Shown here piece after piece: positions 3,797 through 43,834 of a stretch of DNA of 47,673 nucleotides. The notes beneath the pieces are model-generated. The model did not search any database. It saw only the letters and a list, made by a program, of their open reading frames with translations, and had not been told where the DNA came from. Origin of the DNA: Minisyncoccota bacterium (lineage in GTDB: Bacteria; Patescibacteriota; Minisyncoccia; Phycocordibacterales; UBA9973); NCBI GenBank assembly GCA_031401615.1, contig JANNRS010000054.1, positions 1 through 47,673 on the forward strand. The letters are read 5' to 3'. Position 1 is the stretch's first letter, and each line of letters begins with the position of its first letter. The position numbers were made by a program, and so were the translations under genes.

Positions 3797-3805
3797 TGTG
3801 GATAA
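3797..3805 (-). promoter_or_regulatory. Perfect DnaA-box-type 9-mer TTATCCACA (minus strand), part of a 22-mer shared with 43813-43834
   Basis: Plus strand reads tgtggataa. The 22-mer cgcaacaagttgttgtggataa (3784-3805) matches 43813-43834 at 20/22. It lies upstream of the RHH gene. Confidence 0.6.
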
Positions 3806-3806
3806 C

Positions 3807-3822
3807 TTTTGCCCTTATTCTA
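3807..3822 (-). promoter_or_regulatory. Class-B promoter-like motif TAGAATAAGGGCAAAA (copy 1 of 4)
   Basis: Reverse complement of ttttgcccttattcta. It overlaps the stop codon of 3815..4015 and is preceded by GGGAAAG, as in copy 4. Confidence 0.45.
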
Positions 3823-4015
3823 CTTTCCCTACAACCTTCCTATCCCCCTCCTGTATCTCCTTAAGGAGATACAGGATGGCTTCAAAATCCAGCTCGCTTA
3901 CCGAGTGGAAGACATTTTTGCCACACTTGCGATTTCTACTAACTATCGCTATCAAATCATCACTCTCGCCATAGATTGCGATAACACTTTCTTGAATTAT
4001 TTTTTCATTTTTCAT
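3815..4015 (-). CDS. Hypothetical protein (66 aa)
   Basis: Track ORF in the early block; its start overlaps the stop of the hand-found ORF 4005..4172. Confidence 0.55.
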   Translation of the reverse strand: MKNEKIIQESVIAIYGESDDLIAIVSRNRKCGKNVFHSVSELDFEAILYLLKEIQEGDRKVVGKVE

Positions 4016-4172
4016 CGTTTTCTTTTTTATAATCTGGTAAATAAACTTTCACACTACCTCCCGAACCACTACCCATCCACACATACTTCCCATACTCATC
4101 CGTATAAACATCTTCTTCATTTCTACCCCCTCGTTGGTTTAACCATTGTATTTCTTTAAAATTCAAATACAT
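4005..4172 (-). CDS. Hypothetical small protein (55 aa, MYLNFKEIQWLNQRGGRNEEDVY...)
   Basis: Hand-translated. It starts about 35 nt downstream of motif copy 2, and its stop overlaps the next ATG. Confidence 0.4.
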   Translation of the reverse strand: MYLNFKEIQWLNQRGGRNEEDVYTDEYGKYVWMGSGSGGSVKVYLPDYKKENDEK

Positions 4173-4205
4173 ATATTTTCTCTCTTAATTCTAATAATAC
4201 CGACC

Positions 4206-4220
4206 TTTGCCCTTATTCTA
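4206..4220 (-). promoter_or_regulatory. Class-B promoter-like motif TAGAATAAGGGCAAA (copy 2)
   Basis: Reverse complement of tttgcccttattcta, located about 25 nt downstream (minus sense) of terminator 4246-4277. Confidence 0.5.
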
Positions 4221-4245
4221 AAATGCCTACAAAAATTTCTCACAG

Positions 4246-4277
4246 AAAAACCGTCAAAACACTGGTATTTTTGACGG
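4246..4277 (-). terminator. Rho-independent terminator (minus strand)
   Basis: 9-bp stem ccgtcaaaa/ttttgacgg (4251-59 / 4269-77), followed on the minus strand by TTTTT (4246-50). It lies just after the stop of 4324..4551. Confidence 0.6.
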
Positions 4278-4323
4278 CTCTTCGCTTCTCGTTTAGACGA
4301 CTTGCGTTCAGCTTCCTCTTAAT

Positions 4324-4551
4324 TTACATAGGTATATCCTCCAAATCAAAAGCACTCGGCAACATTATCTTTGATACTTTACTTCCATAGTAATCCAAAT
4401 CAAGGCGGGGTCTTCCTTCTTTATCAAGACAAATAAATAATCTAGCAATCTGCTCTCGCTTTTCATTATTTACCACCACCTCAATATGCCTATCTCCACT
4501 CTTTGCGATTGACTTCCCACGCTCGCTATTAGCGACAATATTTAATTTCAT
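4324..4551 (-). CDS. Hypothetical protein (75 aa)
   Basis: Track ORF; ATGA-type overlap with 4548..4760. Confidence 0.55.
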   Translation of the reverse strand: MKLNIVANSERGKSIAKSGDRHIEVVVNNEKREQIARLFICLDKEGRPRLDLDYYGSKVSKIMLPSAFDLEDIPM

Positions 4552-4760
4552 AAATCGTAATTACCAATTATTCTAGTAATCTCATCTTCAAGCTCATAAT
4601 ACGGCTCACCCGACAATTCCCATTTTTTGTCGTGTTGATGTTTAATCCTATCTAATAATGGCTCTATCACACCCTCAATTATTCTAATAGCATTTTGTCT
4701 AGCAGGAAAATCCGCATTGTATGCCTCATCAGGCATTTTCTTTTTTCTCTTCATAAGCAT
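4548..4760 (-). CDS. Hypothetical protein (70 aa)
   Basis: Track ORF in the early block. Confidence 0.55.
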   Translation of the reverse strand: MLMKRKKKMPDEAYNADFPARQNAIRIIEGVIEPLLDRIKHQHDKKWELSGEPYYELEDEITRIIGNYDL

Positions 4761-4867
4761 TTTATATTAAGTTTTGTAAAGAACACGCACCAGTTCGTGC
4801 TTCAGTATCATAGACACTGATTGTTGTACCCTTTGTGCCGTTTGACAAAAAGATACAACATCAACGG

Positions 4868-5101
4868 CTATTGCAAATCAACAATGAAATCAGTTATTTC
4901 CTCTTGGTCTTCTTCCGAAAGAGACATAAATAATTTCTCACTCTCTTCATCATTCCAACCCCAATCAGTATCAGGCTGTATATTTTCGCCGTCTTCCCAA
5001 CTCTTATATAGCTCTAAGGTGCGGTCATTGCCAATATCAAGAGTAAAGTCTATGGCAACACTTTCCCGAACGATATGTTTATTTTCTATTTCTATTTTCA
5101 T
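4868..5101 (-). CDS. Acidic hypothetical protein (77 aa)
   Basis: Asp/Glu-rich (WEDGENIQPDTDWGWNDEESEKLFMSLSEEDQEEITDF); packed against 5103..5408. Confidence 0.55.
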   Translation of the reverse strand: MKIEIENKHIVRESVAIDFTLDIGNDRTLELYKSWEDGENIQPDTDWGWNDEESEKLFMSLSEEDQEEITDFIVDLQ

Positions 5102-5102
5102 A

Positions 5103-5408
5103 TTATTCGTGTTTAACTTTTAATTTTCGGCTAGTGTGAGCCTCGCAATACTCACCGTCCTCACCCTGCAACTCATTACAATCATCTGCCACACACTTCA
5201 AAGGCTCGGCATTGTGCTTTGGTATACCTAAATGCTCCGCAAGGATAGGCAAGTCAATCCAAAAACCATTATCACAATAAGCGTCTGCCATTTTTGACGC
5301 TAAATGCTCCATTGTGCTATCGTCTACATCTTGAGTATTAAAATCAATACTCTCTAAGTCCTCTCTCGCCACACTTGTAATCACAAAGTCTTTATATTTT
5401 TTTTCCAT
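5103..5408 (-). CDS. Acidic hypothetical protein with Cys/His-containing C-terminus (101 aa)
   Basis: Track ORF. It is acidic throughout, and the C-terminal CVADDCNELQGEDGEYCEAH is a possible metal site. Confidence 0.55.
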   Translation of the reverse strand: MEKKYKDFVITSVAREDLESIDFNTQDVDDSTMEHLASKMADAYCDNGFWIDLPILAEHLGIPKHNAEPLKCVADDCNELQGEDGEYCEAHTSRKLKVKHE

Positions 5409-5424
5409 TTTAGTTATTTTTAAT

Positions 5425-5610
5425 TTATAAACCCTCTCTTAATGTCAATTCTCTTTCAACCTCCATAAGCTCGTGAAATTTCCTTATGAAAAATTGGCTT
5501 TTACCTTTTTCTATATAATCCATAAGCTCTTCTCGCATACTAACCAAAGTATCATCTTCTAAGTCTCCAAAATCTCCATAATGGACAACTTTTTCTTTTT
5601 TAGCTTTCAT
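5425..5610 (-). CDS. Hypothetical protein (61 aa)
   Basis: Track ORF. Confidence 0.5.
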   Translation of the reverse strand: MKAKKEKVVHYGDFGDLEDDTLVSMREELMDYIEKGKSQFFIRKFHELMEVERELTLREGL

Positions 5611-5611
5611 T

Positions 5612-5737
5612 TTAGTTAATTAACTTGTTTATAATTGCCTCGTAGGCGTTCCCCACTACCCAAATAAATGCACTAGCCCCTAAGATAGAGATAGCCAAAT
5701 AAAAGAGTAATTCCAACCAATGCTTTAGTATTCTCAT
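5612..5737 (-). CDS. Small membrane peptide (41 aa, MRILKHWLELLFYLAISILGASAFIWVVG...)
   Basis: Hand-translated; fills the gap between 5739..5849 and 5425..5610; one clear TM helix. Confidence 0.4.
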   Translation of the reverse strand: MRILKHWLELLFYLAISILGASAFIWVVGNAYEAIINKLIN

Positions 5738-5738
5738 C

Positions 5739-5849
5739 TTATTTTTTGTTTACTTTTAATTTTTTACGCCACGCCACCATATCTTTTGAATGAAACAATG
5801 GATGTTGTTCACCAAAATTTTGGATGGTGTTTGCATTTTTTTCTGTCAT
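5739..5849 (-). CDS. Hypothetical small protein (36 aa)
   Basis: Hand-translated MTEKNANTIQNFGEQHPLFHSKDMVAWRKKLKVNKK; ATGA overlap with the stop of 5846..6265. Confidence 0.3.
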   Translation of the reverse strand: MTEKNANTIQNFGEQHPLFHSKDMVAWRKKLKVNKK

Positions 5850-6265
5850 TTTATTTTTAATAATCTATGCTTATTGAACAAATGACTTTCTAAATGAAAA
5901 AATGTCATTTTACAAACTGGACACGACTCCAACTTTCCTTTCTTTTTCTTATTCACACCCTCAATCCTTTCTATCAATTTCTTTCGCTCCGACTCACTCA
6001 CTCTTCTGCCTTCACCTTTCCTATCTCCTTTCTTAAACTGATATTTTTTACCACCTTTCAAAAGATTTTTAACATACTCCTCCCTATGCTCCTCAAAATG
6101 CTCTTGTTTTTTCCTTTTAACTTCACTCCCAATAAGCGACATAGTAAAAGGCAAATCAAATTCTTCTTTATAGTCTCGCGATAATACGCCGTGTCTGTGC
6201 CATAAATGCGAACCTAAATGTGCAAATCTCTTACCACACATCAAACATTTTATTGTTTTTTCCAT
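5846..6265 (-). CDS. MucR/Ros-type C2H2 zinc-finger protein with two finger copies (139 aa)
   Basis: The N-terminal CLMCGKRFAHLGSHLWHRHGVLSRDYKEEFDLP follows the Ros/MucR pattern CLxCGKxFxxLxxHLxxxHGxxxxxYxxx(W/F)xLP. There is a second copy, CPVCKMTFFHLESHLFNKH. Confidence 0.6.
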   Translation of the reverse strand: MEKTIKCLMCGKRFAHLGSHLWHRHGVLSRDYKEEFDLPFTMSLIGSEVKRKKQEHFEEHREEYVKNLLKGGKKYQFKKGDRKGEGRRVSESERKKLIERIEGVNKKKKGKLESCPVCKMTFFHLESHLFNKHRLLKIK

Positions 6266-6267
6266 AA

Positions 6268-6279
6268 GCCCTTATTCTA
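6268..6279 (-). promoter_or_regulatory. Class-B motif, shortened copy TAGAATAAGGGC (copy 3) abutting the ATG of 5846..6265
   Basis: The minus strand reads tagaataagggcttATG, only 2 nt before the start codon. If it is a promoter, the mRNA would be leaderless. Confidence 0.35.
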
Positions 6280-6343
6280 AATTTACTTCTAATATATGGA
6301 TAGAACCCGACCAAATTTCTGTCCATAATTTCCAAAGCAAACC

Positions 6344-6359
6344 TTTTGCCCTTATTCTA
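6344..6359 (-). promoter_or_regulatory. Class-B promoter-like motif TAGAATAAGGGCAAAA (copy 4)
   Basis: Reverse complement of ttttgcccttattcta, preceded by GGGAAAC; about 65 nt downstream (minus sense) of terminator 6423-6455. Confidence 0.5.
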
Positions 6360-6422
6360 GTTTCCCGCCAGTAATTTTTTACCAAAAATTTACCCAAAAA
6401 ATCGCTAAAATGTTTGACAAAC

Positions 6423-6455
6423 AAAAAAACCGTGTGCTAGTGTAATCACGGTTTT
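6423..6455 (-). terminator. Rho-independent terminator (minus strand)
   Basis: 9-bp stem aaaaccgtg/cacggtttt (6426-34 / 6447-55) with a 12-nt loop. On the minus strand the stem runs into a T7 run. It lies after the stop of 6493..6675. Confidence 0.6.
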
Positions 6456-6492
6456 ATGTTTTCAACGGTCAAGCCGTTACGAAATCAAAACT

Positions 6493-6675: not shown

Positions 6676-6676
6676 T

Positions 6677-8794: not shown

Positions 8795-8824
8795 TATACT
8801 AACCTAATACTAAGTCAATACTAA
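8795..8824 (-). repeat. Three direct TTAGTAT(T/A) repeats with exact 11-bp phasing
   Basis: The minus strand reads TTAGTATTgacTTAGTATTaggTTAGTATA, with copies starting at 8824, 8813 and 8802. It lies between box 8836-8844 and the first early gene. Confidence 0.6.
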
Positions 8825-8835
8825 TATATACAAAC

Positions 8836-8844
8836 TGGGGATAA
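8836..8844 (-). promoter_or_regulatory. DnaA-box-like 9-mer TTATCCCCA (one mismatch), minus strand
   Basis: Plus strand reads tggggataa. It sits at about the expected start site of the leftward promoter 8851-8880. A TAGTAT hexamer lies 34 nt downstream. Confidence 0.4.
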
Positions 8845-9014: not shown

Positions 9015-9186
9015 ATTGTGGTATAAATGTCAAATGGTAATGGCTAGAAATAAGGCTTATTTGACAGGGGTTTTCTGTTTTATGTTCGCGGTATGATGTG
9101 TATGTTTTGAAAAAAGTTTTTATTTTCTGCCGTTTCTATGCTTAAAAACTCCTCCACCACTTCATTTTTTTTGTAATCCCTATACT

Positions 9187-9212
9187 AAAAAAAAAAAAAA
9201 AAAAAAAAAAAA
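9187..9212. repeat. Homopolymer A26
   Basis: Counted directly: 26 consecutive A, intergenic, immediately after a CCTATAC copy (9179-9185). Confidence 0.95.
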
Positions 9213-9420
9213 TGTTTTATAAATGAAGTATACATACCTGCGAAGGTGTTTTGCCCTGCGGGGCTATGTTTCTTTTGGAGAAACTCCCCCAACCGCCCGC
9301 GAACGGCACCACCAAATGCCAAAATATGGCTTAACCACAACATATCTTGTTTATGTGTCGCACAATATACATTGTGCGACATTAAAAATATGGCTCATTG
9401 ACTATACAGAATGACAAAAC

Positions 9421-9566
9421 ACACCCCCTATACCCCCGACAAGGCACCCCCCGACCCAGTGGAAAATACCGTATAGGTACTCCCACCCAATAAACGGCAG
9501 AAATTCTGTTTCGTATCCTATACACCAGAAATTTCCATTTATATTTCAAACGGCACCCCCCTACCC
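9421..9566 (+). repeat. C-rich repeat block in the non-coding region upstream of terS
   Basis: GGCACCCCCC occurs at 9443-9452 and 9552-9561. CCTATAC occurs at 9427 and 9517, and at 9471 in reverse complement. AACGGCA occurs three times. The 11-bp inverted pair ttctgccgttt (9125-35) / aaacggcagaa (9492-9502) is also present. Confidence 0.7.
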
Positions 9567-9628
9567 CTAATTTCCTATAAGAAAATCATTTCCCACTATT
9601 AGGTATAAAAAATTTTGAAATTTCAAGG

Positions 9629-9637
9629 TTGTCCACA
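9629..9637 (+). promoter_or_regulatory. DnaA-box-like 9-mer TTGTCCACA (one mismatch), 33 nt upstream of TAGAAT 9671-9676
   Basis: Direct reading. TAGTATT follows 3 nt later, as at 16639. The 16-mer atagtattaacttaaa (9640-9655) recurs inverted at about 3746-3761. Confidence 0.45.
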
Positions 9638-9667
9638 ACATAGTATTAACTTAAAATATTTGAGGTG

Positions 9668-9676
9668 TGGTAGAAT
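9668..9676 (+). promoter_or_regulatory. Extended -10 promoter TGgTAGAAT without a -35, about 140 nt upstream of terS
   Basis: tgtggTAGAATagagaccATG; no TTGACA-like hexamer at 17 +/- 1 nt. Confidence 0.45.
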
Positions 9677-9683: not shown

Positions 9684-9782
9684 ATGCAACCTTCTGCTAA
9701 AATATTTGTCATACCAAATGTCCCTTGTTTTGGAGCTAACGATATTTCGGTTTTAGGTTTTTGTAGAAAGACTAGAGATTAG
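9684..9782 (+). CDS. Possible leaderless 32-codon leader ORF (MQPSAKIFVIPNVPCFGANDISVLGFCRKTRD)
   Basis: The ATG lies 8 nt after the -10 hexamer, and the stop codon lies inside the loop of hairpin 9766-9800. This could equally be a non-coding short transcript. Confidence 0.2.
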   Translation: MQPSAKIFVIPNVPCFGANDISVLGFCRKTRD

Positions 9783-9800
9783 GTTCTCTAGTTTTTCTAT
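9766..9800 (+). terminator. Hairpin + T-run directly upstream of terS (terminator/attenuator candidate)
   Basis: 8-bp perfect stem actagaga/tctctagt (9771-78 / 9785-92), extendable by gaaag/ttttc, then ttttctatttt. The terS ATG is at 9813. Confidence 0.5.
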
Positions 9801-9812
9801 TTTAAATTCTAA

Positions 9813-10406
9813 ATGGAAGAGAAAAAACCAAAAATAACAGAAGATGAATTTGAGGAGCAAGTAGCTTCTCTTGAAAATGAAATAAAAAAAATTGTTCCAA
9901 AAAAATTGGAAATTTTAAAGCGCCTCGCTTATGAAATATCTATTATTGGATTGTCTGAACAGGAGGCTTGTATGGTTGTGAATTTTGATATAGCGGAGCT
10001 TATTGCCTTGAGGCAAAAGCATGAGAAGATTGAGAGACTTTTTAAAATGAAATCTCTTGAATATAAGCGAGGATTACTTAAAACTTTATCTAAAAAAGCT
10101 AGAGAAGGAGATGAAAAACTTGCCCAGTGGCTACTTGAGGCTAAGTATGGTGAAGAATACAACCGTAGACGCGGTGGAGGTGGTAATGGAGCCGAAGGGG
10201 GTGAGGATATGCTGGGGGCGGCGGTGGATTTTATACAGAAGAGTGCGGGGGGAGGGGAGAGTGTATTGGGGAGTGGGGGGTTGGTGAAGAAGGCGAGTGG
10301 TTTTGGGTCGGGGGTGGTTGGAGATACGAGGCGGGAGGTGTTGCCGCCAGTGCATGAGGCACTCAAAGATAGGGCGGAGAAGATTGTAAGTAACTTAGTT
10401 GTATGA
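9813..10406 (+). CDS. terS: Terminase small subunit candidate (HTH N-domain, Gly-rich linker)
   Basis: Lies immediately upstream of terL and overlaps it. HTH-like GLSEQEACMVVNFDIAELIALRQ. Gly-rich segment RRRGGGGNGAEGGED...GSGGLVKKASGFGSGVVG. Confidence 0.55.
   Translation: MEEKKPKITEDEFEEQVASLENEIKKIVPKKLEILKRLAYEISIIGLSEQEACMVVNFDIAELIALRQKHEKIERLFKMKSLEYKRGLLKTLSKKAREGDEKLAQWLLEAKYGEEYNRRRGGGGNGAEGGEDMLGAAVDFIQKSAGGGESVLGSGGLVKKASGFGSGVVGDTRREVLPPVHEALKDRAEKIVSNLVV
10168..10350 (+). other. G-rich, GC-rich tract inside terS (G-quadruplex-capable; pac-site candidate)
   Basis: G runs G6-a-G4-agagtgtatt-G4-agt-G6 at 10257-10290, plus further G3-G5 runs. Strongly atypical for this AT-rich genome. 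Confidence 0.6.
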
Positions 10407-11938
10407 TAGAGGAAGATAAATTATTAAATGGGCAGGAGATTTCTTTTGAGGAGGTGAAGAAATATCTCTCGGATGCTAAGTGGCGATTAAATAATTTGTA
10501 TTTCGTGAAGGATGAGAGGGGGAGGAAGGTGCAGTTTGTATTGAATGAAACACAGGAGTTACTTTATAGCGGGCTTTGGTATTTTAATATCGTGCCGAAG
10601 GCAAGACAGTTGGGGGTGACTACTTTTTTTGCAATTTTATATTTAGACCAGATACTTTTTAGTGAGAATCAGACCGCGACTATCATCGCTCACACTGAGC
10701 GGGACATGAAGCGTATTTTTAAAAACAAGATTAAGTTCGCGTGGGACAATTTGCATCCCTGGCTTAAGGCTAAGATTGGGGAACCAGATGTGAATACGGC
10801 GAATGAGTTGAATTTTCCAAACGGCTCCGTCATTTCTGTCGCTCTCTCATCTCGTTCCGACACAGTACAGTACCTCCACATCTCAGAGTTTGGGTATATT
10901 TGCAGTAAGTACCCAGAGAAGGCGGCAGAGATTGTTGAGGGGGCAATTAACTCGGTCCACGCGGGTGGTATGGTCTCTATTGAGTCCACGGCGGAGGGTA
11001 GGGAGGGGCATTTCTATGAATTTACGATGGATGCAGATAAGAAGCGGAGGGAGGGGAGAGAATTGACCCCGCTAGATTTTAAATTATTCTTTTTCCCGTG
11101 GTATATAGACCACAGATATTCTATGGAGGCAAATTTTGCAATCTCTAGCGATTTTCAGGAATATTTTAAGAAGATTGAGGCGAAAGAGAAGGTTAAGATT
11201 ACGGATGGACAAAGGAGATGGTATATCAAGAAGAAAGAGTTACTGAGGGAGGCGATGTTTTCACAATACCCAAGTACGCTGGACGAGGCATTCTCTGTTT
11301 CAACTGAGGGGGCTTATTATTCTAATGAGATGAATCAAGTTTATTCACAGAATCGGATAAGACCTGTGCCTGTGGTGGATGATACTGTGGTGGATACTTG
11401 GTGGGACTTAGGAATGAATGATTTGAATATTATTATTTTTACTCAGACTTCTGGTCCGTCAATTCGGATAGTGGATTTATATTTTAACCGAGGATATAAA
11501 CTTGGGCATTATGTTGATTTACTGAAGAGTAAGGGATATAGGTACGGGAGACATATTCTCCCTCACGATGTTGAAGTTCGTGATATGTCTTCAGGTATAA
11601 CCAGGAAGCAAACTCTCTACGAGCTTGGGTTGAATAATGTGGTGGTGGCACCGAAATTACCTATCGCGGATGGGGTTGAGAGGGTGCGTGGCATATTTAG
11701 TCGGATGTATTTTGATGAGGACAAGACTAAAGCGCTCTATGAGGCTTTAGGAAATTATAGGAAGGAGTGGGATGCTAAACTTGGGGAATATAAGAATTTA
11801 CCGAGGCATGATAGTAATTCCCACTTTGCCGATGCAGTGCGAACTGGGGCTTGTGTGTGGCGGGAGGAGCCGATGTTTGCTGATAATTATGAGAGAGAAG
11901 CTTATGAGAAACAAACAGAACAATCATTTTTTGCCTAA
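10403..11938 (+). CDS. terL: Terminase large subunit
   Basis: Deviant Walker A KARQLGVTT (compare T4 gp17 SRQLGKT). Nuclease-domain motifs WWDLGMNDLNIIIF and HFADAVR. 511 aa; the portal gene follows. Confidence 0.9.
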   Translation: MIEEDKLLNGQEISFEEVKKYLSDAKWRLNNLYFVKDERGRKVQFVLNETQELLYSGLWYFNIVPKARQLGVTTFFAILYLDQILFSENQTATIIAHTERDMKRIFKNKIKFAWDNLHPWLKAKIGEPDVNTANELNFPNGSVISVALSSRSDTVQYLHISEFGYICSKYPEKAAEIVEGAINSVHAGGMVSIESTAEGREGHFYEFTMDADKKRREGRELTPLDFKLFFFPWYIDHRYSMEANFAISSDFQEYFKKIEAKEKVKITDGQRRWYIKKKELLREAMFSQYPSTLDEAFSVSTEGAYYSNEMNQVYSQNRIRPVPVVDDTVVDTWWDLGMNDLNIIIFTQTSGPSIRIVDLYFNRGYKLGHYVDLLKSKGYRYGRHILPHDVEVRDMSSGITRKQTLYELGLNNVVVAPKLPIADGVERVRGIFSRMYFDEDKTKALYEALGNYRKEWDAKLGEYKNLPRHDSNSHFADAVRTGACVWREEPMFADNYEREAYEKQTEQSFFA

Positions 11939-12128
11939 GAAGCCGAAACCAAATAAGACTCCTGGGGGGATTTATTTGTCTAAGACGGGGAGACCGATGT
12001 GTTTCGATTGTCACGAGGAGATGATACCAGACGGCACTGCTCTGAACTTTGTCACTTTAGAATGGGACGGACATACTTTTATTTGCGGGAAGGGTTGTAT
12101 GGGCGGGGCTAGACTTTCGGTTGGTTGA
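11904..12128 (+). CDS. Small zinc-ribbon-like protein (74 aa)
   Basis: Internal ATG of track ORF 11772..12128 (alternative ATG at 11889). CFDCHEEM...CGKGC. Overlaps the terL end by 35 nt. Confidence 0.4.
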   Translation: MRNKQNNHFLPKKPKPNKTPGGIYLSKTGRPMCFDCHEEMIPDGTALNFVTLEWDGHTFICGKGCMGGARLSVG

Positions 12129-12129
12129 C

Positions 12130-12138
12130 TTATCCCCA
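12130..12138 (+). promoter_or_regulatory. DnaA-box-like 9-mer TTATCCCCA (one mismatch), 34 nt upstream of TATAAT 12173-12178
   Basis: Direct reading; same orientation and spacing class as 9629 and 16639. Confidence 0.4.
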
Positions 12139-12170
12139 ATATGTTAATATATGTTTAATATCAAAATAGT

Positions 12171-12178
12171 TGTATAAT
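12171..12178 (+). promoter_or_regulatory. Promoter-like octamer TGTATAAT upstream of the portal gene (no -35)
   Basis: aatagtTGTATAATtt, nearly identical to aatagTGTATAATtg at 16679; 24 nt before the portal ATG. Confidence 0.45.
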
Positions 12179-12201
12179 TTAATCACCTTAATAACTAGAC
12201 T

Positions 12202-14262
12202 ATGCCACAAATTTTAACAGATAGTGAGAAGATAAATCAGGGGAATTCCCCTGAAAATCCTTTGAACAAAGATGGAGTTTTAGACAAACCTATTGATTTG
12301 TATTCTGAGACAGATAAAACATATCTTTCCTATTTACAATCAAGGCTTGAGAGTGCGAAGAAGCAGAAGGAGAGTCCTTTGCCTGAATTTAATAACAAGA
12401 CTTATTACCAAGATTTTGAGGAGAATATTAAAATTTCGCATACTAAATTACCTGAGAGAAAAAATGAAGACGATGTTATCGTTTCGGCTGGGACGGTAGA
12501 AGCAAAGTTGGAAGCGCTTTTGAGTCATGTTCATAATTTGGAACTGGCACCTGAGGTGCTTGCTTTTGATAGAGAAAACAATATGATAAACGACCTCGGT
12601 ACTGCCCTCACTGATACGATTTTTATGACTGAGCAGATTGACGGCGGTATCATTGGGGGTGATGAAGAAAAGAAGCTTTTAAGACAAAGGGAACTCCTCT
12701 GTCAGAATGCAGTGTTTGTCCAAGAAGAATGGCTCCGAAAATTTGAGCGCAAGAAGAAACTAAGCGAAAAATATGACGGACAATTTAAAGAGTGGAAAAA
12801 TTGGAATGACACTTTGGAGTTGGTTTTTGAAGGACCTTCAAGAACTTTGTTGTATGGTCCGAATGTATATCTTGGAAATATTACGGAATACTTTATGGAC
12901 AATCAGCCATATATGTTTATCGCTTTCCAAGAACATTATGATGTGGCTAAAACAAAATACGGGAAATTTGAAAACTGGAAATATGTCAGGCGTGGCGCAA
13001 TCCCAGAGGGGACGACTGAAGAACAGAAAACTATTTATGATAATAAGTGGCGATTGGAAGATGTTAAAAAAGACCATGTTGAAATAATTTTGTACCAAGA
13101 TAAACCGAATGATGAATTTCAAATATTGATAAATGGGATGGCGATGTTGCCGATGGGCTTCCCACTTTCTGCTGTTTCTCCTGGGGGTTCTTACAACATT
13201 GTGAAGCAGGTTTTTAGAGTTTTGAGCAATCATTTTGCTTACGGTAAAGCTTTCGTAGCTTCGGGTTCAGTGAAAGAAATTGCTACTCTGATTGATGAGA
13301 TGCTTAAGCTCTTCGTACTAAAAACTAGAAAGAGTGTCACTCCTGCGTATGTTAATACTTCTGGAAAAGTTATATCTAGGAAAGTATTGTCACCTGGTAG
13401 AATTTCTATGGGCTTCTCGCCTGATGCTTTGCAACCTATTGGCACCGAAGGTCAGGGGGTTACTTCCAATGAGTATAATATACTTAAGGAATTGCAAGAC
13501 AGGATTGATAAATCTACGGTCTCTAATCAGTTCCAGGGTCAGCAAGGAAAAGCGGGAACTACTGCCACAGAAGTTTTGGAATTACAGCGACAAGCAAAAC
13601 TCACTCTTGGTCTTACTATTGCAACTTGTGTGATGCTTGAGAAAAAACTTGGATACTTGCGACTTTATAATATTATTGAGAATTGGTTTAATCCTATTGA
13701 TACGAAGATTGTCACTACTAATGATGTGCGTAAGTATGTGAATAGTTATCGCAAAACTGTGCGCCAGACAAATATTGAGGGGGAGGGTCTCGGTGAAAGG
13801 CAGGTTATCCCTATGAATGAATTTGATACTGAGGGAAACCCTGAGGGTCTGCCTGACCCAGAGGTTATCAGACAGATGGAGTATTCGGAGGAGGAGAAGA
13901 AAGGTATGCCAGTCAGAATGATTTATTTGCAGCCAGAAGCTTTGAAGACTGCGAGAATCAGGTGGTATATTGTCATCAATCCGAAGGAGAAGGAAGGTTC
14001 CGCATTCTTTAAAGTACTGTTCCGCGAAGAAATTACAGATATGCTCTCACTTATGCAACTTGGCAGTGTCCCAAATATTAATGGACTTGAAGAAGAGTTC
14101 GCTCGTGTTTGGGGTAAAAGCAGAAACAAGTTATTCAGTAGTCGTCAGGCTATGCCTGATATGGGTGGTGTTTCTCCAGCCTTAGGGAAGGAGAAAGGTC
14201 GGTCCAACCAAAGCGGTATGCCGAGTTTGAATAACATGGCAGGTGCGGGTCAAGTTGGATAA
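12202..14262 (+). CDS. Portal protein (686 aa)
   Basis: Large ORF directly after terL in the canonical position, of typical size. No motif-level confirmation was possible. Confidence 0.75.
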   Translation: MPQILTDSEKINQGNSPENPLNKDGVLDKPIDLYSETDKTYLSYLQSRLESAKKQKESPLPEFNNKTYYQDFEENIKISHTKLPERKNEDDVIVSAGTVEAKLEALLSHVHNLELAPEVLAFDRENNMINDLGTALTDTIFMTEQIDGGIIGGDEEKKLLRQRELLCQNAVFVQEEWLRKFERKKKLSEKYDGQFKEWKNWNDTLELVFEGPSRTLLYGPNVYLGNITEYFMDNQPYMFIAFQEHYDVAKTKYGKFENWKYVRRGAIPEGTTEEQKTIYDNKWRLEDVKKDHVEIILYQDKPNDEFQILINGMAMLPMGFPLSAVSPGGSYNIVKQVFRVLSNHFAYGKAFVASGSVKEIATLIDEMLKLFVLKTRKSVTPAYVNTSGKVISRKVLSPGRISMGFSPDALQPIGTEGQGVTSNEYNILKELQDRIDKSTVSNQFQGQQGKAGTTATEVLELQRQAKLTLGLTIATCVMLEKKLGYLRLYNIIENWFNPIDTKIVTTNDVRKYVNSYRKTVRQTNIEGEGLGERQVIPMNEFDTEGNPEGLPDPEVIRQMEYSEEEKKGMPVRMIYLQPEALKTARIRWYIVINPKEKEGSAFFKVLFREEITDMLSLMQLGSVPNINGLEEEFARVWGKSRNKLFSSRQAMPDMGGVSPALGKEKGRSNQSGMPSLNNMAGAGQVG

Positions 14263-14267
14263 AATAA

Positions 14268-14708
14268 ATGTTAAATGAAAAAAAAGAAGGGGGGCAAAAA
14301 ATACTAGAAAAAGATTTAAAGGTGGAAAATCTTTTTCTTAAACGAGAACTTGAAAAAGTAAAACCGCGACCAGTAGTGGATGTTAATTTGAAAGACCCTG
14401 GACCTACAGATTCTGAAAACAGAAAACTGTATGTGGCTCAGGTGGCTGGATTCCATAAAGATGTTATGGGTCATAAATTACTTCATCTGATTGCTGAATC
14501 AAGAAGTCAGTTTGAACAAATAGACAGAAATACCTACGGGTACAGTCAGGAACAATTTGATTTGATTCTTAAGGGAACTATCAATGCTTTGTGGCTCATC
14601 TACTCTTGGGGGGAAGATATGATAAATGAACAAATATCTAACCAACAGGAAGAGTTTGAAAATTTAACTGATGAGGAGAAGCAACGATTAAAAGATAAAC
14701 TTAATTAG
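14268..14708 (+). CDS. Head-module hypothetical protein (146 aa)
   Basis: Track ORF between portal and scaffold-like genes. Confidence 0.55.
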   Translation: MLNEKKEGGQKILEKDLKVENLFLKRELEKVKPRPVVDVNLKDPGPTDSENRKLYVAQVAGFHKDVMGHKLLHLIAESRSQFEQIDRNTYGYSQEQFDLILKGTINALWLIYSWGEDMINEQISNQQEEFENLTDEEKQRLKDKLN

Positions 14709-16487: not shown

Positions 16488-16653
16488 TCTTGGGGAATTG
16501 CATCCCCAGGAAATTGAGCTGATTTGGCTTGTTCGCCACGTTTATAGGTTTGGTAAGGTTGAGATTGAGACACGGGATGGCTTACCAGTGGATGTGGTCA
16601 AAACGATTGAAAGGACCAGGCTTGGAGAGTTTACTCGGTTATCCACAGGTTAG
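16432..16653 (+). CDS. Small YezD/DUF2292-like protein; start uncertain (ATG 16432, or TTG 16498)
   Basis: The C-terminal part of track ORF 16282..16653, IELIWLVRHVYRFGKVEIETRDGLPVDVVKTIERTRL, resembles the remembered DUF2292 pattern L..L.yGsV.I.vqDGkvvqIEktEk.rl. No canonical start lies after the upstream stop. Confidence 0.4.
   Translation: MLQNQKGEKQLLAKKTKDNLGELHPQEIELIWLVRHVYRFGKVEIETRDGLPVDVVKTIERTRLGEFTRLSTG
16639..16647 (+). promoter_or_regulatory. Perfect DnaA-box-type 9-mer TTATCCACA, 33 nt upstream of TATAAT 16681-16686
   Basis: Direct reading; lies in the last codons of the small ORF; TAGTATT follows 3 nt later, as at 9629. Confidence 0.55.
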
Positions 16654-16678
16654 TATTGTTAGCATATTGAGTTAATAG

Positions 16679-16686
16679 TGTATAAT
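16679..16686 (+). promoter_or_regulatory. Promoter-like octamer TGTATAAT heading the decoration/major-capsid unit (no -35)
   Basis: aatagTGTATAATtg; begins the 317-nt non-coding gap before 16970. Confidence 0.5.
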
Positions 16687-16969
16687 TGTGGTGTAGTTCC
16701 CTGAAAGCTACAAATTGTTAAGCCCACCGAAGAACGGCGGCTGTGATGGTTCACAAATTTTGTGGATTGTTGCGGTCGCTGTTCTTTTTGTAAGTGAACT
16801 TATGGACCTATAGAAATATGGCACTATAGGTTTGCTTACAATGCAAAGTCGGGGAGACAACCCTAGTTAACGAAACATTGCTTAGAAAAGTTACTGGCTT
16901 TTCTTCGGAGATTGAAACTCTGGTCAACAAACAAGCATTTTTAAAAAACAGTATTTAATCATAAAAAAA
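16687..16969 (+). promoter_or_regulatory. Long (about 280 nt) highly structured 5' leader / possible ncRNA upstream of the capsid genes
   Basis: Several stems were found by hand: gtagtt/agctac (about 16692), aagaacggcg/cgctgttctt enclosing cacaaa/tttgtg followed by a T-run, gtaagtgaac/gtttgcttac enclosing cctatag/ctatagg, and caatg/cattg. No ORF of 60 aa or more. Confidence 0.45.
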
Positions 16970-40629: not shown

Positions 40630-41019
40630 TTGGGTTCAAGTCTGAACTTAAAAACTGAAGATGTCGTAGTAGTAGAAAAAGAGATAAAAGCTCCTTGGAC
40701 ATTTGAAACCTTACTGCCGTATTTGGCTAAAAAATATGGTCAGGATGAGAAGTTGGCTCGCGCTATTATAAAGTGTGAAAGCGGAACTAAACCTGACAGT
40801 ATCAACCGTAACTATACTAAAGGCGGCACCGTCTGGTCATCAGACCACGGATATTTCCAAATAAATGACTATTGGAATAAGAAGACCGCAATCCAAAGAG
40901 GATTTGACATCCATCTTTGGGAAGAAAACCTTGAGTACGGCTTCATTCTCCTTAAGGAGAGAGGTACGAATCCTTGGTTGCCATCAAAGCGTTGTTGGAG
41001 TAAAATGATAGAGTCCTAG
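40630..41019 (+). CDS. SLT/lysozyme-like transglycosylase (129 aa from the TTG start; true start uncertain)
   Basis: AIIKCESGTKPDSINRN...SDHGYFQINDYWN (catalytic Glu context and a G-x-x-Q-I motif). The in-frame upstream codons are hydrophobic but lack a canonical start. Confidence 0.6.
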   Translation: MGSSLNLKTEDVVVVEKEIKAPWTFETLLPYLAKKYGQDEKLARAIIKCESGTKPDSINRNYTKGGTVWSSDHGYFQINDYWNKKTAIQRGFDIHLWEENLEYGFILLKERGTNPWLPSKRCWSKMIES

Positions 41020-41105: not shown

Positions 41106-41146
41106 ATGAAGAAATCTTCATAGGGAGTATAATTAATTTGGAGGTG
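41106..41146 (+). promoter_or_regulatory. Palindrome + TATAAT + consensus Shine-Dalgarno for the island ORF
   Basis: atgaagaaatcttcat (41106-21), TATAAT (41128-33), GGAGGTG (41140-46), 8 nt before ATG 41155. Confidence 0.5.
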
Positions 41147-41154
41147 TACATTTT

Positions 41155-41367
41155 ATGCCCACTCATATTGGCTACTCTTCGGAGTTCTGCCACACTTGCA
41201 AAAGGTTCACCTCCCACAAAATTTCAAGAATGAACGAAAGTGGAGGACTCGTTCGTGAGTGTCAAGCTTGCATAGAGAGGAGAAATCATCCGTATGGACT
41301 TTCCAACACGGAAGGTGAAAGCAATAACGGAACCAGTGGTAGACCCGCGAACGGTACACTGCGTTAA
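41155..41367 (+). CDS. Zinc-ribbon protein (70 aa) in the GC-richer island
   Basis: CHTC-x19-CQAC. It is the only gene in the window with a strong SD. Confidence 0.55.
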   Translation: MPTHIGYSSEFCHTCKRFTSHKISRMNESGGLVRECQACIERRNHPYGLSNTEGESNNGTSGRPANGTLR

Positions 41368-41500
41368 CTGTCAACTCGCAACTCGTCCCGACCAGGTTCG
41401 GTGTATGAGTTGTAACAAACCATGGGCAACCAAGGTGGAGATAACGAAAAACCCCGTTCAAAGGGTTTTCCGCTTCCACGAGGGGAAGATGGTTCATTAA
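41294..41500 (+). CDS. Second zinc-ribbon ORF (68 aa), overlapping the first by 74 nt in another frame
   Basis: CVNC-x11-CMSC. No SD. It contains a terminator-like aaaaccc/gggtttt stem, so coding status is uncertain. Confidence 0.3.
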   Translation: MDFPTRKVKAITEPVVDPRTVHCVNCQLATRPDQVRCMSCNKPWATKVEITKNPVQRVFRFHEGKMVH

Positions 41501-41548
41501 GAAGGGGGTGGTCACATCTTGGCAGCTCGGAAAGACGAGCGGGGGGAG

Positions 41549-41896
41549 CTATTCATCGCTCCCTTCTTTCTTTGTCAATCTGTACTCCATAAACACAGTC
41601 GGTTTTGAAGTGGCAATCCCTCTGGCTATCTCATCCGCTTTTTTATCTTTCAACTGATTCTCAAAGTTTTGAGTCTCAGGAGAAAATGTCCAGTTATCTC
41701 GCTTCTTGATTTCAATAACCCCTTTGACACAATTTATTTTTTCATCTTCACCAATATGAGGTAAGATTTTTTCTTTCAATTCATCAATCCTTACTTTAAG
41801 TTCCTTCTCTTCAATCTTCAAATCCTCATAAGCAAGAAGGTCATTTTTTAATTCTTCATTCATATTTTTAAGTTGCACTCTGATAGAATTCATCAT
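41549..41896 (-). CDS. Coiled-coil protein, possibly Gp157/Gam-like recombination-module accessory (115 aa)
   Basis: N-terminal coiled coil, then KGVIEIKKRDNWTF and LKDKKADEIARGIATSKPTVFMEYR, which recall siphovirus Gp157-type proteins. Weak call. Confidence 0.35.
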   Translation of the reverse strand: MMNSIRVQLKNMNEELKNDLLAYEDLKIEEKELKVRIDELKEKILPHIGEDEKINCVKGVIEIKKRDNWTFSPETQNFENQLKDKKADEIARGIATSKPTVFMEYRLTKKEGSDE

Positions 41897-42194
41897 TGAC
41901 CAACTCGGTCACAGTGAAGTCTATCGGAGTAGTTGATTTATAAGTTTTTTCATTAAACCTCTCATCCTCTGGTCCATAACCCAACTCTCGTCTTACCCTT
42001 AAGGAATTGGCTACAGAACCGATGGTTTTTTTGACTTTTGCTTCCCAGTCGGATTCACCCATCATATCTGCTTTTTTTTGTTGATTGGCATAGGTCATAA
42101 CTCCAACCCTGCCGATAGCGACTACGCCTTTGCCGTCACTGCTTCTGTAGACATAGATTTTGTATTCCTCTGGGGCTAATTGTTCGTTATTCAT
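41868..42194 (-). CDS. Hypothetical protein (108 aa)
   Basis: Track ORF in the leftward recombination block. Confidence 0.5.
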   Translation of the reverse strand: MNNEQLAPEEYKIYVYRSSDGKGVVAIGRVGVMTYANQQKKADMMGESDWEAKVKKTIGSVANSLRVRRELGYGPEDERFNEKTYKSTTPIDFTVTELVNDEFYQSAT

Positions 42195-43033
42195 GTTAAG
42201 AATATTTGCTTTTTAGGACTGAAAGGATAAAAGATTGAGATACCGCTATTAATATAGTCGTAGACTGCGGAAACATGCCTGAAGGCACTGAAGGCGGCGA
42301 ATTGGTCTACAATCCTAGCAAGGTTGTATTTCTTTTTGTCCTTATCAATCTGCATAATTAATAATTCTTGAGGGCGCAGTCCTGTCATTTCCCACAAAGC
42401 TTTTCTGTAGGCAGCTACCTGCATGGCATACTCTGGTTTATCAATGGAATTGCTTGTTTTGAAGTCAACAATACAAAATATATCCTTACCCTCTTTCTTT
42501 ATATAGAATAAAGAATCTAGTGTCCCTGCATATTTATATTTGACTGAACAAACTCTCAGTTCTGAAGCGATAGGTGTGACCTCGTAGTCGTTGAAGAATT
42601 GCTCAGCTGAGCGAGTAATCGCCCAAAGCCGAGAATCTTCTCCAACGATAAACGAAGTCACATCTTTTGGTTTTTTGCCCGTATTTATCCATTGTTTCAG
42701 ATACCTTTCAATGGCTTCGTGACCTCTTGTCCCTATGTCGCCAGCATCCCTCAATTCATCTTCGTGAGCTAATTTGGCTGCTTTGTAATGCTCTTCTTTA
42801 TTCTTGTCATTTATAACCCCCCAGTTGCGGTCAAGATAATCAACAGCAATACCTGCAGCCCAGCGCTTCAGTCGCGGATTTTCCAATATGCCTGTTTTGG
42901 TCGTCACACTTGAAAAGACTTGGTTGGTTGGAGTGTGCCTGTATTTATGACCGTATTCGTCATGTTCAGGCACGACCAAATCTGGTGGGACTCGTTCGGC
43001 AATTATTCTTTGGATGTCAGCGACTGTTTTCAT
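42191..43033 (-). CDS. PD-(D/E)xK exonuclease, RecB/Cas4-like phage exonuclease (280 aa)
   Basis: Motifs GTRGHEAIERY, AGTLDSLFY, IVDFKTS (D-x-K) and QVAAYRKAL (QxxxY). Confidence 0.8.
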   Translation of the reverse strand: MKTVADIQRIIAERVPPDLVVPEHDEYGHKYRHTPTNQVFSSVTTKTGILENPRLKRWAAGIAVDYLDRNWGVINDKNKEEHYKAAKLAHEDELRDAGDIGTRGHEAIERYLKQWINTGKKPKDVTSFIVGEDSRLWAITRSAEQFFNDYEVTPIASELRVCSVKYKYAGTLDSLFYIKKEGKDIFCIVDFKTSNSIDKPEYAMQVAAYRKALWEMTGLRPQELLIMQIDKDKKKYNLARIVDQFAAFSAFRHVSAVYDYINSGISIFYPFSPKKQIFLT

Positions 43034-43503
43034 TAGAAGTTTTTGAATTCCGCTTCTGTCTTGGCTTTTTCTTCAAGCTCCGCTACAAACGCTTCGTCAA
43101 ATTTTCCATTTGTGTAAACATTTATAACTTTCAAAGGATTGAAGCCTTTTTTGCGAGCTGGTTTTTCGTCAGTGAATTCAACTCTGACTTTTTGTCCGAG
43201 TTTTATATTTCTGAATTTATTGTCTATCATCTTTGGGCTTTCTTTGGAGCCACCACCGACATTCCAAATTTCTCCCTCCTTAATAACGATAGGCTCTTCA
43301 ATCACCACTTTTTTGGCATCAATGTCGTGGAATTCACCGCCGTCAGCCTTAATCTCGTAAATCTTGACCATCTCCTTTTCTTTGCCTGGGAGCTGGCTTT
43401 GGATTTCTCTAACTGAAATTAGAGTCCCCATGATGTTGTCTCCGATTTTGTTAAACTTAGCGAAGGAATTTTTCACCTCCTGCCATTCATTTTTTTCACT
43501 CAT
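43033..43503 (-). CDS. Possible ssDNA-binding protein (156 aa)
   Basis: Adjacent to the exonuclease. Beta-rich core, with an acidic C-terminal tail ending in an aromatic residue (AELEEKAKTEAEFKNF) like T7 gp2.5-type SSBs. Inference only. Confidence 0.35.
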   Translation of the reverse strand: MSEKNEWQEVKNSFAKFNKIGDNIMGTLISVREIQSQLPGKEKEMVKIYEIKADGGEFHDIDAKKVVIEEPIVIKEGEIWNVGGGSKESPKMIDNKFRNIKLGQKVRVEFTDEKPARKKGFNPLKVINVYTNGKFDEAFVAELEEKAKTEAEFKNF

Positions 43504-43587
43504 ATAATTTTTAACTGTTAACTAATAACTGATAAATTTCTTATTCTCCAACCTCCAAATAAGAAGAAAGCATAGAGCCACTTATCT

Positions 43588-43758
43588 CTATACTTTCTTC
43601 TGATTTTGATAGTACTTCCTTATACGATAAACCCAAGTCCTGTCAATATTAAATATTTCTCCTATCTCAATATCAGTAAAGCCTTCTTTGCTTAATTGAG
43701 CTATCAGATTGACCCTCTTTTCTAGTACCGTTTTTTTTGTTAATTTGATTCTTGGCAT
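43588..43758 (-). CDS. Small HTH DNA-binding protein (56 aa), first gene of the leftward recombination block
   Basis: Hand-translated MPRIKLTKKTVLEKRVNLIAQLSKEGFTDIEIGEIFNIDRTWVYRIRKYYQNQKKV. The HTH is GFTDIEIGEIFNIDRTWVYRIRK. Confidence 0.5.
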   Translation of the reverse strand: MPRIKLTKKTVLEKRVNLIAQLSKEGFTDIEIGEIFNIDRTWVYRIRKYYQNQKKV

Positions 43759-43759
43759 G

Positions 43760-43768
43760 TTATCCACA
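43760..43768 (+). promoter_or_regulatory. Perfect DnaA-box-type 9-mer TTATCCACA, 32 nt upstream of TATAAT 43801-43806
   Basis: Direct reading; 1 nt from the ATG of the divergent HTH gene. Confidence 0.6.
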
Positions 43769-43777
43769 GCTAACGCT

Positions 43778-43806
43778 TTGATAAAGTCAATTATAAATAC
43801 TATAAT
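43778..43806 (+). promoter_or_regulatory. Near-consensus sigma70-type promoter TTGATA - 17 nt - TATAAT (rightward replication block)
   Basis: ttgata aagtcaattataaatac tataat; the first gene's ATG is at 43859. Confidence 0.6.
43790..43795 (-). promoter_or_regulatory. Divergent -10 hexamer TATAAT (minus strand), back to back with the rightward -10
   Basis: Plus strand reads attata. It lies 30 nt downstream (minus sense) of box 43834-43826. TTGTTG lies at 19 nt as a weak -35. Confidence 0.4.
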
Positions 43807-43825
43807 AAATAACGCAACAACATGT

Positions 43826-43834
43826 TGTGGATAA
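43826..43834 (-). promoter_or_regulatory. Perfect DnaA-box-type 9-mer TTATCCACA (minus strand), overlapping the palindrome ACAACATGTTGT (43817-43828)
   Basis: Plus strand reads tgtggataa; inverted relative to 43760-43768. Confidence 0.6.

Follow-up and report, generated by a model that had tools for sequence, protein, structure and literature searches.

The DNA stretch analysed here, contig JANNRS010000054.1 (positions 1 to 47,673, 47,673 nt; hereafter the window), is a circular phage assembly in which the 9-mer TTATCCACA, a high-affinity DnaA box, recurs in front of predicted promoters. From comparison of the window with its relatives we conclude, with high confidence as far as sequence can tell, that this box is an upstream element of sigma-70-type promoters, constrained in distance as well as in orientation, and that it is used at both early and late promoters of the phage and its relatives. 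An initial annotation of the window had suggested a protein-binding site centred near −50, and the family-wide conservation of the box at a fixed distance from, and in a fixed orientation to, what appear to be real −10 elements fits this suggestion. As to the protein that reads the box, we regard it as an even call that host DnaA acts there as a promoter-upstream activator; a small phage-encoded helix-turn-helix (HTH) protein is a live rival.

Exact DnaA boxes are overrepresented and lie at a set distance from −10 hexamers

The initial annotation had listed four exact copies of TTATCCACA, at 3797-3805 (minus strand), 16639-16647 (plus), 43760-43768 (plus) and 43826-43834 (minus). All four are found at these coordinates, but the total is five, as a further exact copy is present at 3421-3429 (plus) within the minus-strand gene 3099-3584. 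The estimate that less than one copy should be expected was sound: 0.33 copies are expected as compared to five observed, and this number was reached in none of 100 dinucleotide shuffles, a control that the initial annotation had itself proposed. The three one-mismatch sites that it had added, at 9629, 12130 and 8836, are correctly positioned but not significant on sequence alone. That is, the one-mismatch set as a whole is weakly enriched (25 versus 14.8 expected; 25 reached in one of 100 shuffles), and enrichment being insufficient, these three sites draw their support from their spacing and from the relatives.

Measurement of the distances between boxes and −10 hexamers gave the values reported before. 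On the plus strand, the gap is 33 nt from the box at 9629 to TAGAAT at 9671, 34 nt from 12130 to TATAAT at 12173, 33 nt from 16639 to TATAAT at 16681 and 32 nt from 43760 to TATAAT at 43801. On the minus strand, it amounts to 36 nt for the 3797 box (TAGTAT), 34 nt for the 8836 box (TAGTAT) and 30 nt for the 43826 box (TATAAT); the 3797 box has a further hexamer, TAAGAT, at a gap of 31 nt. When a composite site was defined as a box with at most one mismatch, a gap of 29-35 nt and a TAnnnT hexamer within one mismatch of TATAAT, six composites were counted in the window as compared to 0.45 expected (200 first-order Markov simulations, maximum 4). A −35 hexamer had been described as absent at 9629, 12130 and 16639, which is true of the first two, but the third has TTAGCA-16-TATAAT with 10 of 12 consensus matches. 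Similarly, the TG noted ahead of these −10 elements forms a canonical TGn extended −10 at 9629 only, whereas at 12130 and 16639 it directly abuts the hexamer.

The box and its spacing are conserved in a family of metagenomic phages

Protein searches with the primase, the portal protein and the MCM-like protein of the window recovered a family of ~47-50-kb metagenomic phages. Primase loci were obtained from Logan (L001, 96% identical; L002, 45%) and from IMG/VR (62 loci, 24-43% identical), and loci around the portal gene were fetched as well. In total, 56 distinct primase loci with primases 24-96% identical were used. Querying IMG/VR with the primase sequence alone gave no match, and an alignment-based search was needed to find the relatives. 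Megablast and tblastn searches of INPHARED with the region 9800-14300, the portal protein and the MCM-like protein revealed no cultured relatives, and the large terminase alone has distant matches in this collection, with at most 43% identity. The sole match in genome collections is L069 (CAZNUY010000004.1), a contig of 46,955 bp that is binned in a Candidatus Saccharibacteria metagenome-assembled genome (MAG), carries no flanking host DNA and is probably the phage itself. Homologues of the MCM-like protein reside on ~48-kb contigs, with no host flank among those shown.

The 459 kb of related loci contain 64 exact boxes as compared to 4.9 expected. In 40 of the 56 distinct loci, the 140 nt upstream of the primase gene contain a box in forward orientation that has no more than one mismatch, as opposed to 3.7% of background windows, and the primase promoter is the most widely conserved location of the box. 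The inverted pair of boxes seen in the window recurs in closer relatives, with a distance of 64-76 nt between the box starts; the intervening and surrounding sequence has diverged. The same holds for the terS, portal, capsid and HTH promoters, where orthologous boxes are kept and their flanks have diverged.

The geometry is likewise a property of the family. In 94 unique exact-box contexts, the distance from box to TATAAT-like hexamer peaks at 30-34 nt, and it does so for the forward orientation alone: these five bins hold 45 hexamer matches, as compared to at most 4 per bin in the opposite-orientation control, which is flat. Of 95 composite sites built on boxes with at most one mismatch, 32 have the start ATG of an ORF exactly 6-7 nt after the hexamer. 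As this is the layout of leaderless mRNAs, the hexamers read as true −10 elements with a predicted start ~7 nt downstream, which puts the box at about −54 to −44. The box always reads in the direction of transcription, and many box promoters have in addition a TTGACA- or TTGCnn-type −35 hexamer 4-13 nt after the box plus a TGn extension. Alignment on the box yields a sharp 9(10)-mer, gTTATCCACA, with a preferred G just before the 9-mer and flat information content on both sides; an asymmetric site with such sharp edges suggests a monomeric binder. Among the promoter-positioned sites in the family, 45 of 96 are exact copies of TTATCCACA, and the variants include TTGTCCACA, TTTTCCACA and TTATCCCCA.

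Bacteroidota-type promoters (TTTG / TAnnTTTG), an idea derived from the missing Shine-Dalgarno sequences, were considered and rejected, the hexamers being canonical TATAAT with the ATG 6-7 nt on. No gene has a Shine-Dalgarno sequence, and A/T-rich runs like ttaattaaaaatatATG stand before the starts, e.g. upstream of 12202, 16970, 24719 and 43859. Many genes of the family are leaderless and yet have canonical TTGACA/TGnTATAAT promoters, an odd pairing that may help to identify the host.

Boxes head early and late promoters

At 43.8 kb, two exact boxes in inverted orientation belong to a pair of predicted promoters that overlap back to back. The box at 43760-43768 (plus strand), which abuts the start codon of the HTH gene, is the upstream element of the rightward promoter PR, whose core TTGATA-17-TATAAT (43778-43806, plus strand) matches the consensus at 11 of 12 positions. 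PR is located upstream of the genes for a 44-aa acidic ORF, an HNH endonuclease, the primase and the MCM-like helicase, and this layout is repeated in relatives. Its box is exact in L001, L002, L005, L006, L007, L010, L011, L013 and L014 and reads TTGTCCACA in L322. The box at 43826-43834 (minus strand) is the upstream element of the leftward promoter PL (43790-43817, minus strand), whose core, as read from the sequence, consists of the −35 hexamer TTGCGT (reverse complement of 43812-43817), a 16-nt spacer and the −10 hexamer TATAAT (reverse complement of 43790-43795). A box-promoter composite with a gap of 30-32 nt precedes the HTH gene in seven further loci (L001, L002, L005, L006, L007, L008 and L010). 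With respect to the opposing transcripts, the 43760 box lies at about +14 to +22 of the leftward one and the 43826 box at +13 to +21 of the PR transcript.

The right-hand box of this pair shares a 3-nt overlap with the palindrome ACAACATGTTGT (43817-43828), which has a near-duplicate at 3787-3799 and could serve as a second operator or form a 5' hairpin. Two near-duplicate 21-mers, GCAACAA(GT/CA)TGTTGTGGATAA, are present at 3786-3806 and 43813-43834, that is 7.5 kb apart across the circular junction, and in each copy a DnaA box is joined to a palindrome, ACAACA..TGTTGT. The spacing of the half-sites is 0-5 nt among relatives, and the palindrome is found in most close relatives with the 56-aa HTH gene (not clear in L007). 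It may represent the operator of the 56-aa HTH protein or a 5' RNA hairpin.

In the rightward block, the exact box at 16639-16647 (plus) precedes the capsid-module promoter TTAGCA-16-TATAAT (16659-16686, plus); it reads TTGTCCACA in L067 and is exact in L068, L073, L075, L080 and L081, with core promoters TTTGCA-17-TACAAT in L068 and TTGATT-16-TATAAT in L081. The portal promoter (TATAAT at 12173-12178) is preceded by the one-mismatch box TTATCCCCA at 12130-12138 (plus). At the orthologous site, L068, L070, L071, L072, L078, L080 and L081 have an exact TTATCCACA; six of them show a gap of 33-34 nt to TATAAT, and L078 one of 34 nt to TATAAA. Upstream of the terS operon, the one-mismatch box TTGTCCACA (9629-9637, plus) is combined with TGgTAGAAT at 9668-9676, and a leaderless 32-codon ORF begins at 9684; box promoters close to terS also occur in L077 and L081.

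Leftward transcription of the gene 3568-3744 is predicted to start from a promoter with the exact box at 3797-3805 (minus), the −35 hexamer TTGCGG and either of the two −10 hexamers mentioned above; L001 has CTATCCACA at this site, with TAGTAT at 31 nt. The one-mismatch box TTATCCCCA at 8836-8844 (minus) stands at the head of the leftward early operon, with TAGTAT at the reverse complement of 8796-8801. This probable promoter, called from the window sequence, is the weakest of the set. The exact box at 3421-3429 (plus), inside the minus-strand gene 3099-3584, is followed by TATCAT 32 nt on and corresponds to TTGTCCACA in L001; it may mark an antisense promoter, or be a chance or coding-constrained copy.

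A conserved leader terminator is a likelier gate for late genes

The initial annotation took the box to gate late transcription. This idea could not be upheld: the same element is present at early promoters, namely the divergent HTH/primase-helicase pair and the leftward early promoters, and it is most conserved at the primase. The box can therefore not by itself separate late from early genes. Nor is it confined to late promoters in the way of Ogr/Delta- or Mor/C-type sites, as it also occurs at the primase, HTH and leftward early promoters, and no Pfam, PHROG or NCBIfam match to activators of these types was found among the early proteins.

A more likely and more conventional late gate than the box is a conserved terminator in the capsid leader (16729-16791, plus strand), which is composed of an A-tract, a 28-bp hairpin and a U-tract and lies ~45-100 nt after the predicted start of the capsid operon. 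The hairpin has a folding energy of −36.9 kcal/mol (z −9.3), and three terminator-like matches were found as compared to 0.3 expected. Orthologous leader hairpins with different stem sequences are present in L068, L075, L078 and L081. When applied to the whole capsid leader, RNAalifold returned a short helix at most, and the terminator hairpin alone holds up. The layout recalls lambda PR'-tR' and suggests late control by antitermination or read-through, or production of a short leader RNA. The leader comprises ~280 untranslated nt and contains two GGAGAnAAACCCTAGTTAAnAAACA-like elements after the terminator, at 16851-16877 and 16906-16933; they recur together with the hairpin in the same four relatives.

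Candidate proteins for binding of the box

The initial annotation had named host DnaA or one of the ribbon-helix-helix (RHH) or HTH proteins of the phage as possible binders. The former is favoured, as TTATCCACA matches the near-universal high-affinity DnaA box at nine of nine positions, and all five exact copies conform to the R-type sequence TTWTNCACA. One specified 9-mer on either strand corresponds to 1 in 131,072, which makes a coincidence with the site of a phage-specific factor unlikely. The box varies mainly at its positions 1, 3 and 5; changes are rarest at positions 2, 4 and 8 (0-2 for each). The consensus sequences of Escherichia coli (TTWTNCACA) and Mycobacterium tuberculosis (YWRTCCACA) are also free at positions 1, 3 and 5, and known DnaA boxes in general are free at positions 1-3, 5 and 9 and keep the core T4, C6-A7-C8 (PMC5043019). 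At nrdAB, DnaA bound to high-affinity boxes of the promoter region stabilises the complex of RNA polymerase and DNA and thereby activates the gene, and it stimulates transcription at ori-lambda, possibly via contact to RpoB (PMC8203912). In support of host DnaA, the box is also present at 27 distinct primase promoters that have no adjacent HTH homologue.

If host DnaA is the binder, a monomer would contact the box through domain IV and would help RNA polymerase to bind in the manner of a class-I activator, which would matter most at the promoters that have no −35 hexamer. As each box of the PR/PL pair is located at about −50 of its own promoter and at about +13 to +22 of the opposing one, an occupied box should favour one promoter and hinder the other. 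Beside the primase and helicase genes, this pair may also mark the start of replication. Late timing would rest on other features such as the conserved capsid leader terminator, the box not being the late switch. The wider proposal, which we place just short of an even call, is that the phage family uses host DnaA as a general position-specific activator at most promoters, including those for replication, packaging, portal and capsid. The level or nucleotide state of host DnaA would then set the infection programme, and the genome copies would draw DnaA away from oriC.

Several observations weigh against host DnaA. It is present from the moment of infection, so the model explains no temporal order. 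The most common variant of the box, TTATCCCCA (11 of 96 sites; in the window at 12130 and 8836), has an A-to-C change at position 7, which is kept in the known consensus sequences, and primase promoters without any box exist in some relatives. In all seven genomes with boxes at late promoters, the small HTH gene beside the box pair is kept. The near-consensus sequence of PR (11 of 12 matches) should make an activator unnecessary. Beyond the family, IMG/VR was scanned for TTATCCACA-N30-34-TATAAT and for an inverted-box control; among the matches listed, a −35-like hexamer was present in 9 of 119 forward cases as compared to 4 of 115 controls, no clear sign of the layout outside the family. L098, one of the matches, is an unrelated Streptococcus suis prophage and was left out. 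The sole hint at a host is the 47-kb relative in the Candidatus Saccharibacteria MAG. Finally, we know of few precedents for activation by DnaA from about −50.

The main rival binder would be a phage-encoded monomeric HTH protein, the best candidate being the 56-aa HTH_23 protein (Pfam; 43588-43758, minus strand) with a generic predicted three-helix HTH fold. Transcribed from PL and made early from PR/PL, it would feed back on these promoters and, from about −50, activate the late promoters that have no −35 hexamer, thus providing an early-to-late switch and the temporal logic that DnaA does not supply. The identity to a DnaA box would then be chance or deliberate mimicry, and a mimic would also occupy host DnaA boxes. 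The gene adjoins the box pair, its product is conserved in each of the seven genomes compared (35-89% identity), which holds for no other small DNA-binding candidate, an adjacent divergent homologue was detected by profile search in 16 of the 56 loci, and an asymmetric 9-mer fits a single sigma-r4/LuxR-like HTH. Nevertheless, we consider this protein a less likely binder than host DnaA: in the 27 loci mentioned above the box does without an adjacent HTH homologue, L015 has the HTH gene without a box, and identity at nine of nine positions to the universal DnaA consensus has a likelihood of ~1 in 131,072 by chance. Moreover, the fold search gave non-significant generic HTH matches only and no DnaA domain IV, and the real operator of the protein could be the CAAC-n-GTTG palindrome that abuts the right-hand box in most close HTH-bearing relatives (not clearly in L007), although the link between palindrome and HTH gene fails in the distant HTH-positive loci L011, L013 and L014. 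It is conceivable from the sequences that the conserved 56-aa protein has evolved the DNA specificity of DnaA and acts at phage promoters as well as at host DnaA boxes. DnaA boxes are also part of plasmid and phage P1 origins, and the boxes of the window could accordingly be replication elements that recruit DnaA for origin opening or for loading of the MCM-like helicase, above all at 43760/43826, or that titrate DnaA and so stop initiation in the host, the −10 hexamers being incidental. Indeed, the two boxes of the pair enclose an AT-rich stretch of 57 nt directly upstream of the genes for primase and MCM-like helicase, and neither an initiator nor a polymerase of the phage was detected among the proteins screened. 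However, an origin leaves unexplained the fixed spacing of 30-34 nt and single orientation to the −10, the ATG 6-7 nt after the hexamer, and the conserved boxes before portal, capsid and terS. The region 43.4-44.1 kb contains no iterons and no box clusters, there being two boxes only at 43.8 kb and no Rep- or DnaA-like gene, and the spacing of the paired boxes varies between 64 and 76 nt. A function in replication instead of transcription is thus improbable to us, and a dual role is conceivable for the 43.8-kb pair alone. A chance origin, finally, in which an AT-rich genome yields DnaA-box look-alikes near AT-rich hexamers, could account for the weak enrichment of the one-mismatch set and for the composite matches from random IMG/VR sequences, which among those listed are mostly coding and chance-like. 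It accounts neither for the exact copies and composites counted in the window nor for the orthologous sites conserved in dozens of diverged relatives; the comparative data refute it, and we assign it a negligible probability.

Other proteins were examined as binders and rejected. The RHH-like 58-aa and 161-aa proteins are unlikely, as they are not conserved beyond the closest relative, apart from one weak further match of the 161-aa protein (31% identity); almost all early genes are unconserved among the seven genomes compared. A 72-aa Sigma70_r4 protein of L001 is absent from the window. The MCM-like helicase co-occurs with the box at the primase promoter, but the recognition helix of its winged helix is hydrophobic and acidic, and the late promoters would be left unexplained.

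Genome organisation and further sequence elements

As bases 1-141 are identical to 47533-47673, the window represents a circular assembly of a 47,532-bp phage genome, with a G+C content of ~39%. Early genes are transcribed leftward between ~1.3 and 9.5 kb, followed by a long rightward block (9.6-41.6 kb) with terS, terL, portal, capsid, tail and lysis genes. A leftward recombination block (41.5-43.8 kb) encodes a PD-(D/E)XK exonuclease, a 156-aa protein and the 56-aa HTH protein. The rightward replication block from 43.86 kb comprises the 44-aa acidic ORF, the HNH endonuclease, the primase, a 450-aa protein and an SNF2-type helicase, whose gene spans the circular junction. Rfam and tRNA scans of the window detected no RNA genes.

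The replication module driven by PR (44502-47025, plus strand) consists of the primase (44502-45557) and the 450-aa protein (45673-47025). The latter has no Pfam, PHROG or PDB sequence match; its structure, predicted with high confidence (pLDDT 86), gives Foldseek matches to MCM proteins at E ~1e-7 and identifies it as a predicted MCM-like AAA+ helicase with a C-terminal winged helix. Its gene follows the primase gene in 58 related loci. The primase has an N-terminal Toprim domain (residues 87-172) and a C-terminal CHC2 zinc ribbon (293-349), the reverse of the domain order in DnaG. Between PR and the primase, an HNH/AP2 homing-type endonuclease is encoded at 44032-44505; its absence from this position in L002 and most relatives makes a mobile insertion probable. 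No DNA polymerase or initiator protein was found among the proteins of the replication module and early region that were screened, so that dependence on host replication proteins is plausible.

The early region encodes a 139-aa protein (5846-6265) with a Ros/MucR zinc-finger DNA-binding domain (E 1.9e-8), a regulator family typical of Alphaproteobacteria; no homologue was detected in the seven partial relative genomes compared, the closest relative included. A tyrosine integrase gene (4177-5025), absent from the window, separates the early block from terS in L068, and part of the family may hence be temperate. Where the leftward early block and the rightward late block diverge, there is an uninterrupted run of 26 A (9187-9212), beneath the mechanically listed ORF 9185-9382 (minus), and C-rich repeats (ccccc motifs) are found at 9430-9570.

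Further repeats were noted. The 16-mer ATAGTATTAACTTAAA is common to 3751-3766 (minus) and 9640-9655 (plus), just downstream of two boxes, and TAGTATT-type repeats, some of them inverted AGTATT/AATACT pairs, are found near early promoters at 8796-8830 of the window and in L068 and L071. These repeats may constitute a second regulatory site. A DnaA-trio unwinding element was considered and rejected: TAGTATT follows the box at a few sites, and there is no general conservation 3' of the box. The 12-mer GCCCTTATTCTA occurs in intergenic spacers of the leftward early region (3808-3822, 4206-4220, 6268-6279 and 6345-6359) and is lengthened to TTTGCCCTTATTCTA in three of its four copies (minus strand TAGAATAAGGGCAAA). 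It is probably not a −10 element, as its TAGAAT part is lost in L001 (GGAATAAGGGCAAA). The palindrome TCTCCTTAAGGAGA has two full copies and two partial ones (3856-3869, 40947-40960, 1704-1715 and ~308-319), and the region 3846-3871 forms a perfect hairpin with an 11-bp stem within the ORF 3815-4015.

Significance and comparison with known systems

The box element yields about seven confidently placed promoters in a genome almost without annotated genes. If DnaA is the true binder, the phage would offer a clean natural system for the activation of RNA polymerase by DnaA, an open question in a 2021 review (PMC8203912). Phage development would then be tied to the replication state of the host, and promoters, perhaps also host range, could be predicted for many 'dark' metagenomic phages, which form a large group. 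Should the phage HTH protein be the true binder, its specificity for DnaA boxes would make it a host-takeover factor of a new type.

It is known that phages make use of regulators of their hosts, among them LexA, CtrA, NtcA and IHF. Among phage-encoded activators, Ogr of P2, Delta of P4 and C/Mor of Mu bind near −55, just upstream of a weak or absent −35 hexamer at late promoters; their sites are dyad-symmetric, restricted to late promoters and bound by a phage zinc-finger or Mor/C protein. In the phage described here, by contrast, the site is asymmetric and present at early promoters too, and no homologue of these activators was detected among the early proteins. The origins of P1 (oriR), pSC101, F and RK2 have DnaA boxes by an AT-rich stretch and replication genes, together with iterons and a Rep initiator. 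No iterons were found at 43.4-44.1 kb of the window and no Rep among the proteins screened, and most of the boxes are far from the replication module.

A closer parallel is provided by E. coli nrdAB, and also by dnaA, guaBA and others, where TTATCCACA-type high-affinity boxes are located in the sigma-70 promoter region (PMC8203912). However, nrdAB is cellular, has two or three boxes and switches between activation and repression depending on dose and nucleotide. The phage element, known from its sequence, is a single box in one fixed position and orientation at about seven promoters, and it is family-wide. The DnaA sites of lambda are weak and located downstream of pR. At lambda pR/ori-lambda, host DnaA likewise stimulates transcription that serves phage replication genes, with a potential contact to RNA polymerase's beta subunit (PMC8203912). 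This concerns one promoter, whereas in the present case perfect boxes lie upstream, at about −50, of many promoters including those of structural genes. Sites for the cell-cycle master regulator CtrA are concentrated in promoter regions of phages of Alphaproteobacteria as a conserved genomic signature, which has been read as a means for the phage to sense the cell-cycle state of the host ('lytic deferment') (PMC9437464). That system involves another regulator and other hosts, its sites are clustered in one large intergenic region, and binding was shown experimentally; the sites described here, deduced from sequence, are single, spread over early and late promoters and held at a fixed distance to the −10. 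The suggestion of the initial annotation that no such phage circuit had been described agrees with our full-text literature searches, in which no phage genome or family with DnaA boxes as a fixed upstream element of its promoters was encountered. We therefore rate the perfect DnaA box at a fixed promoter position in most operons as the new aspect of this phage family, within the known kind of host-regulator sites that are co-opted by phages.

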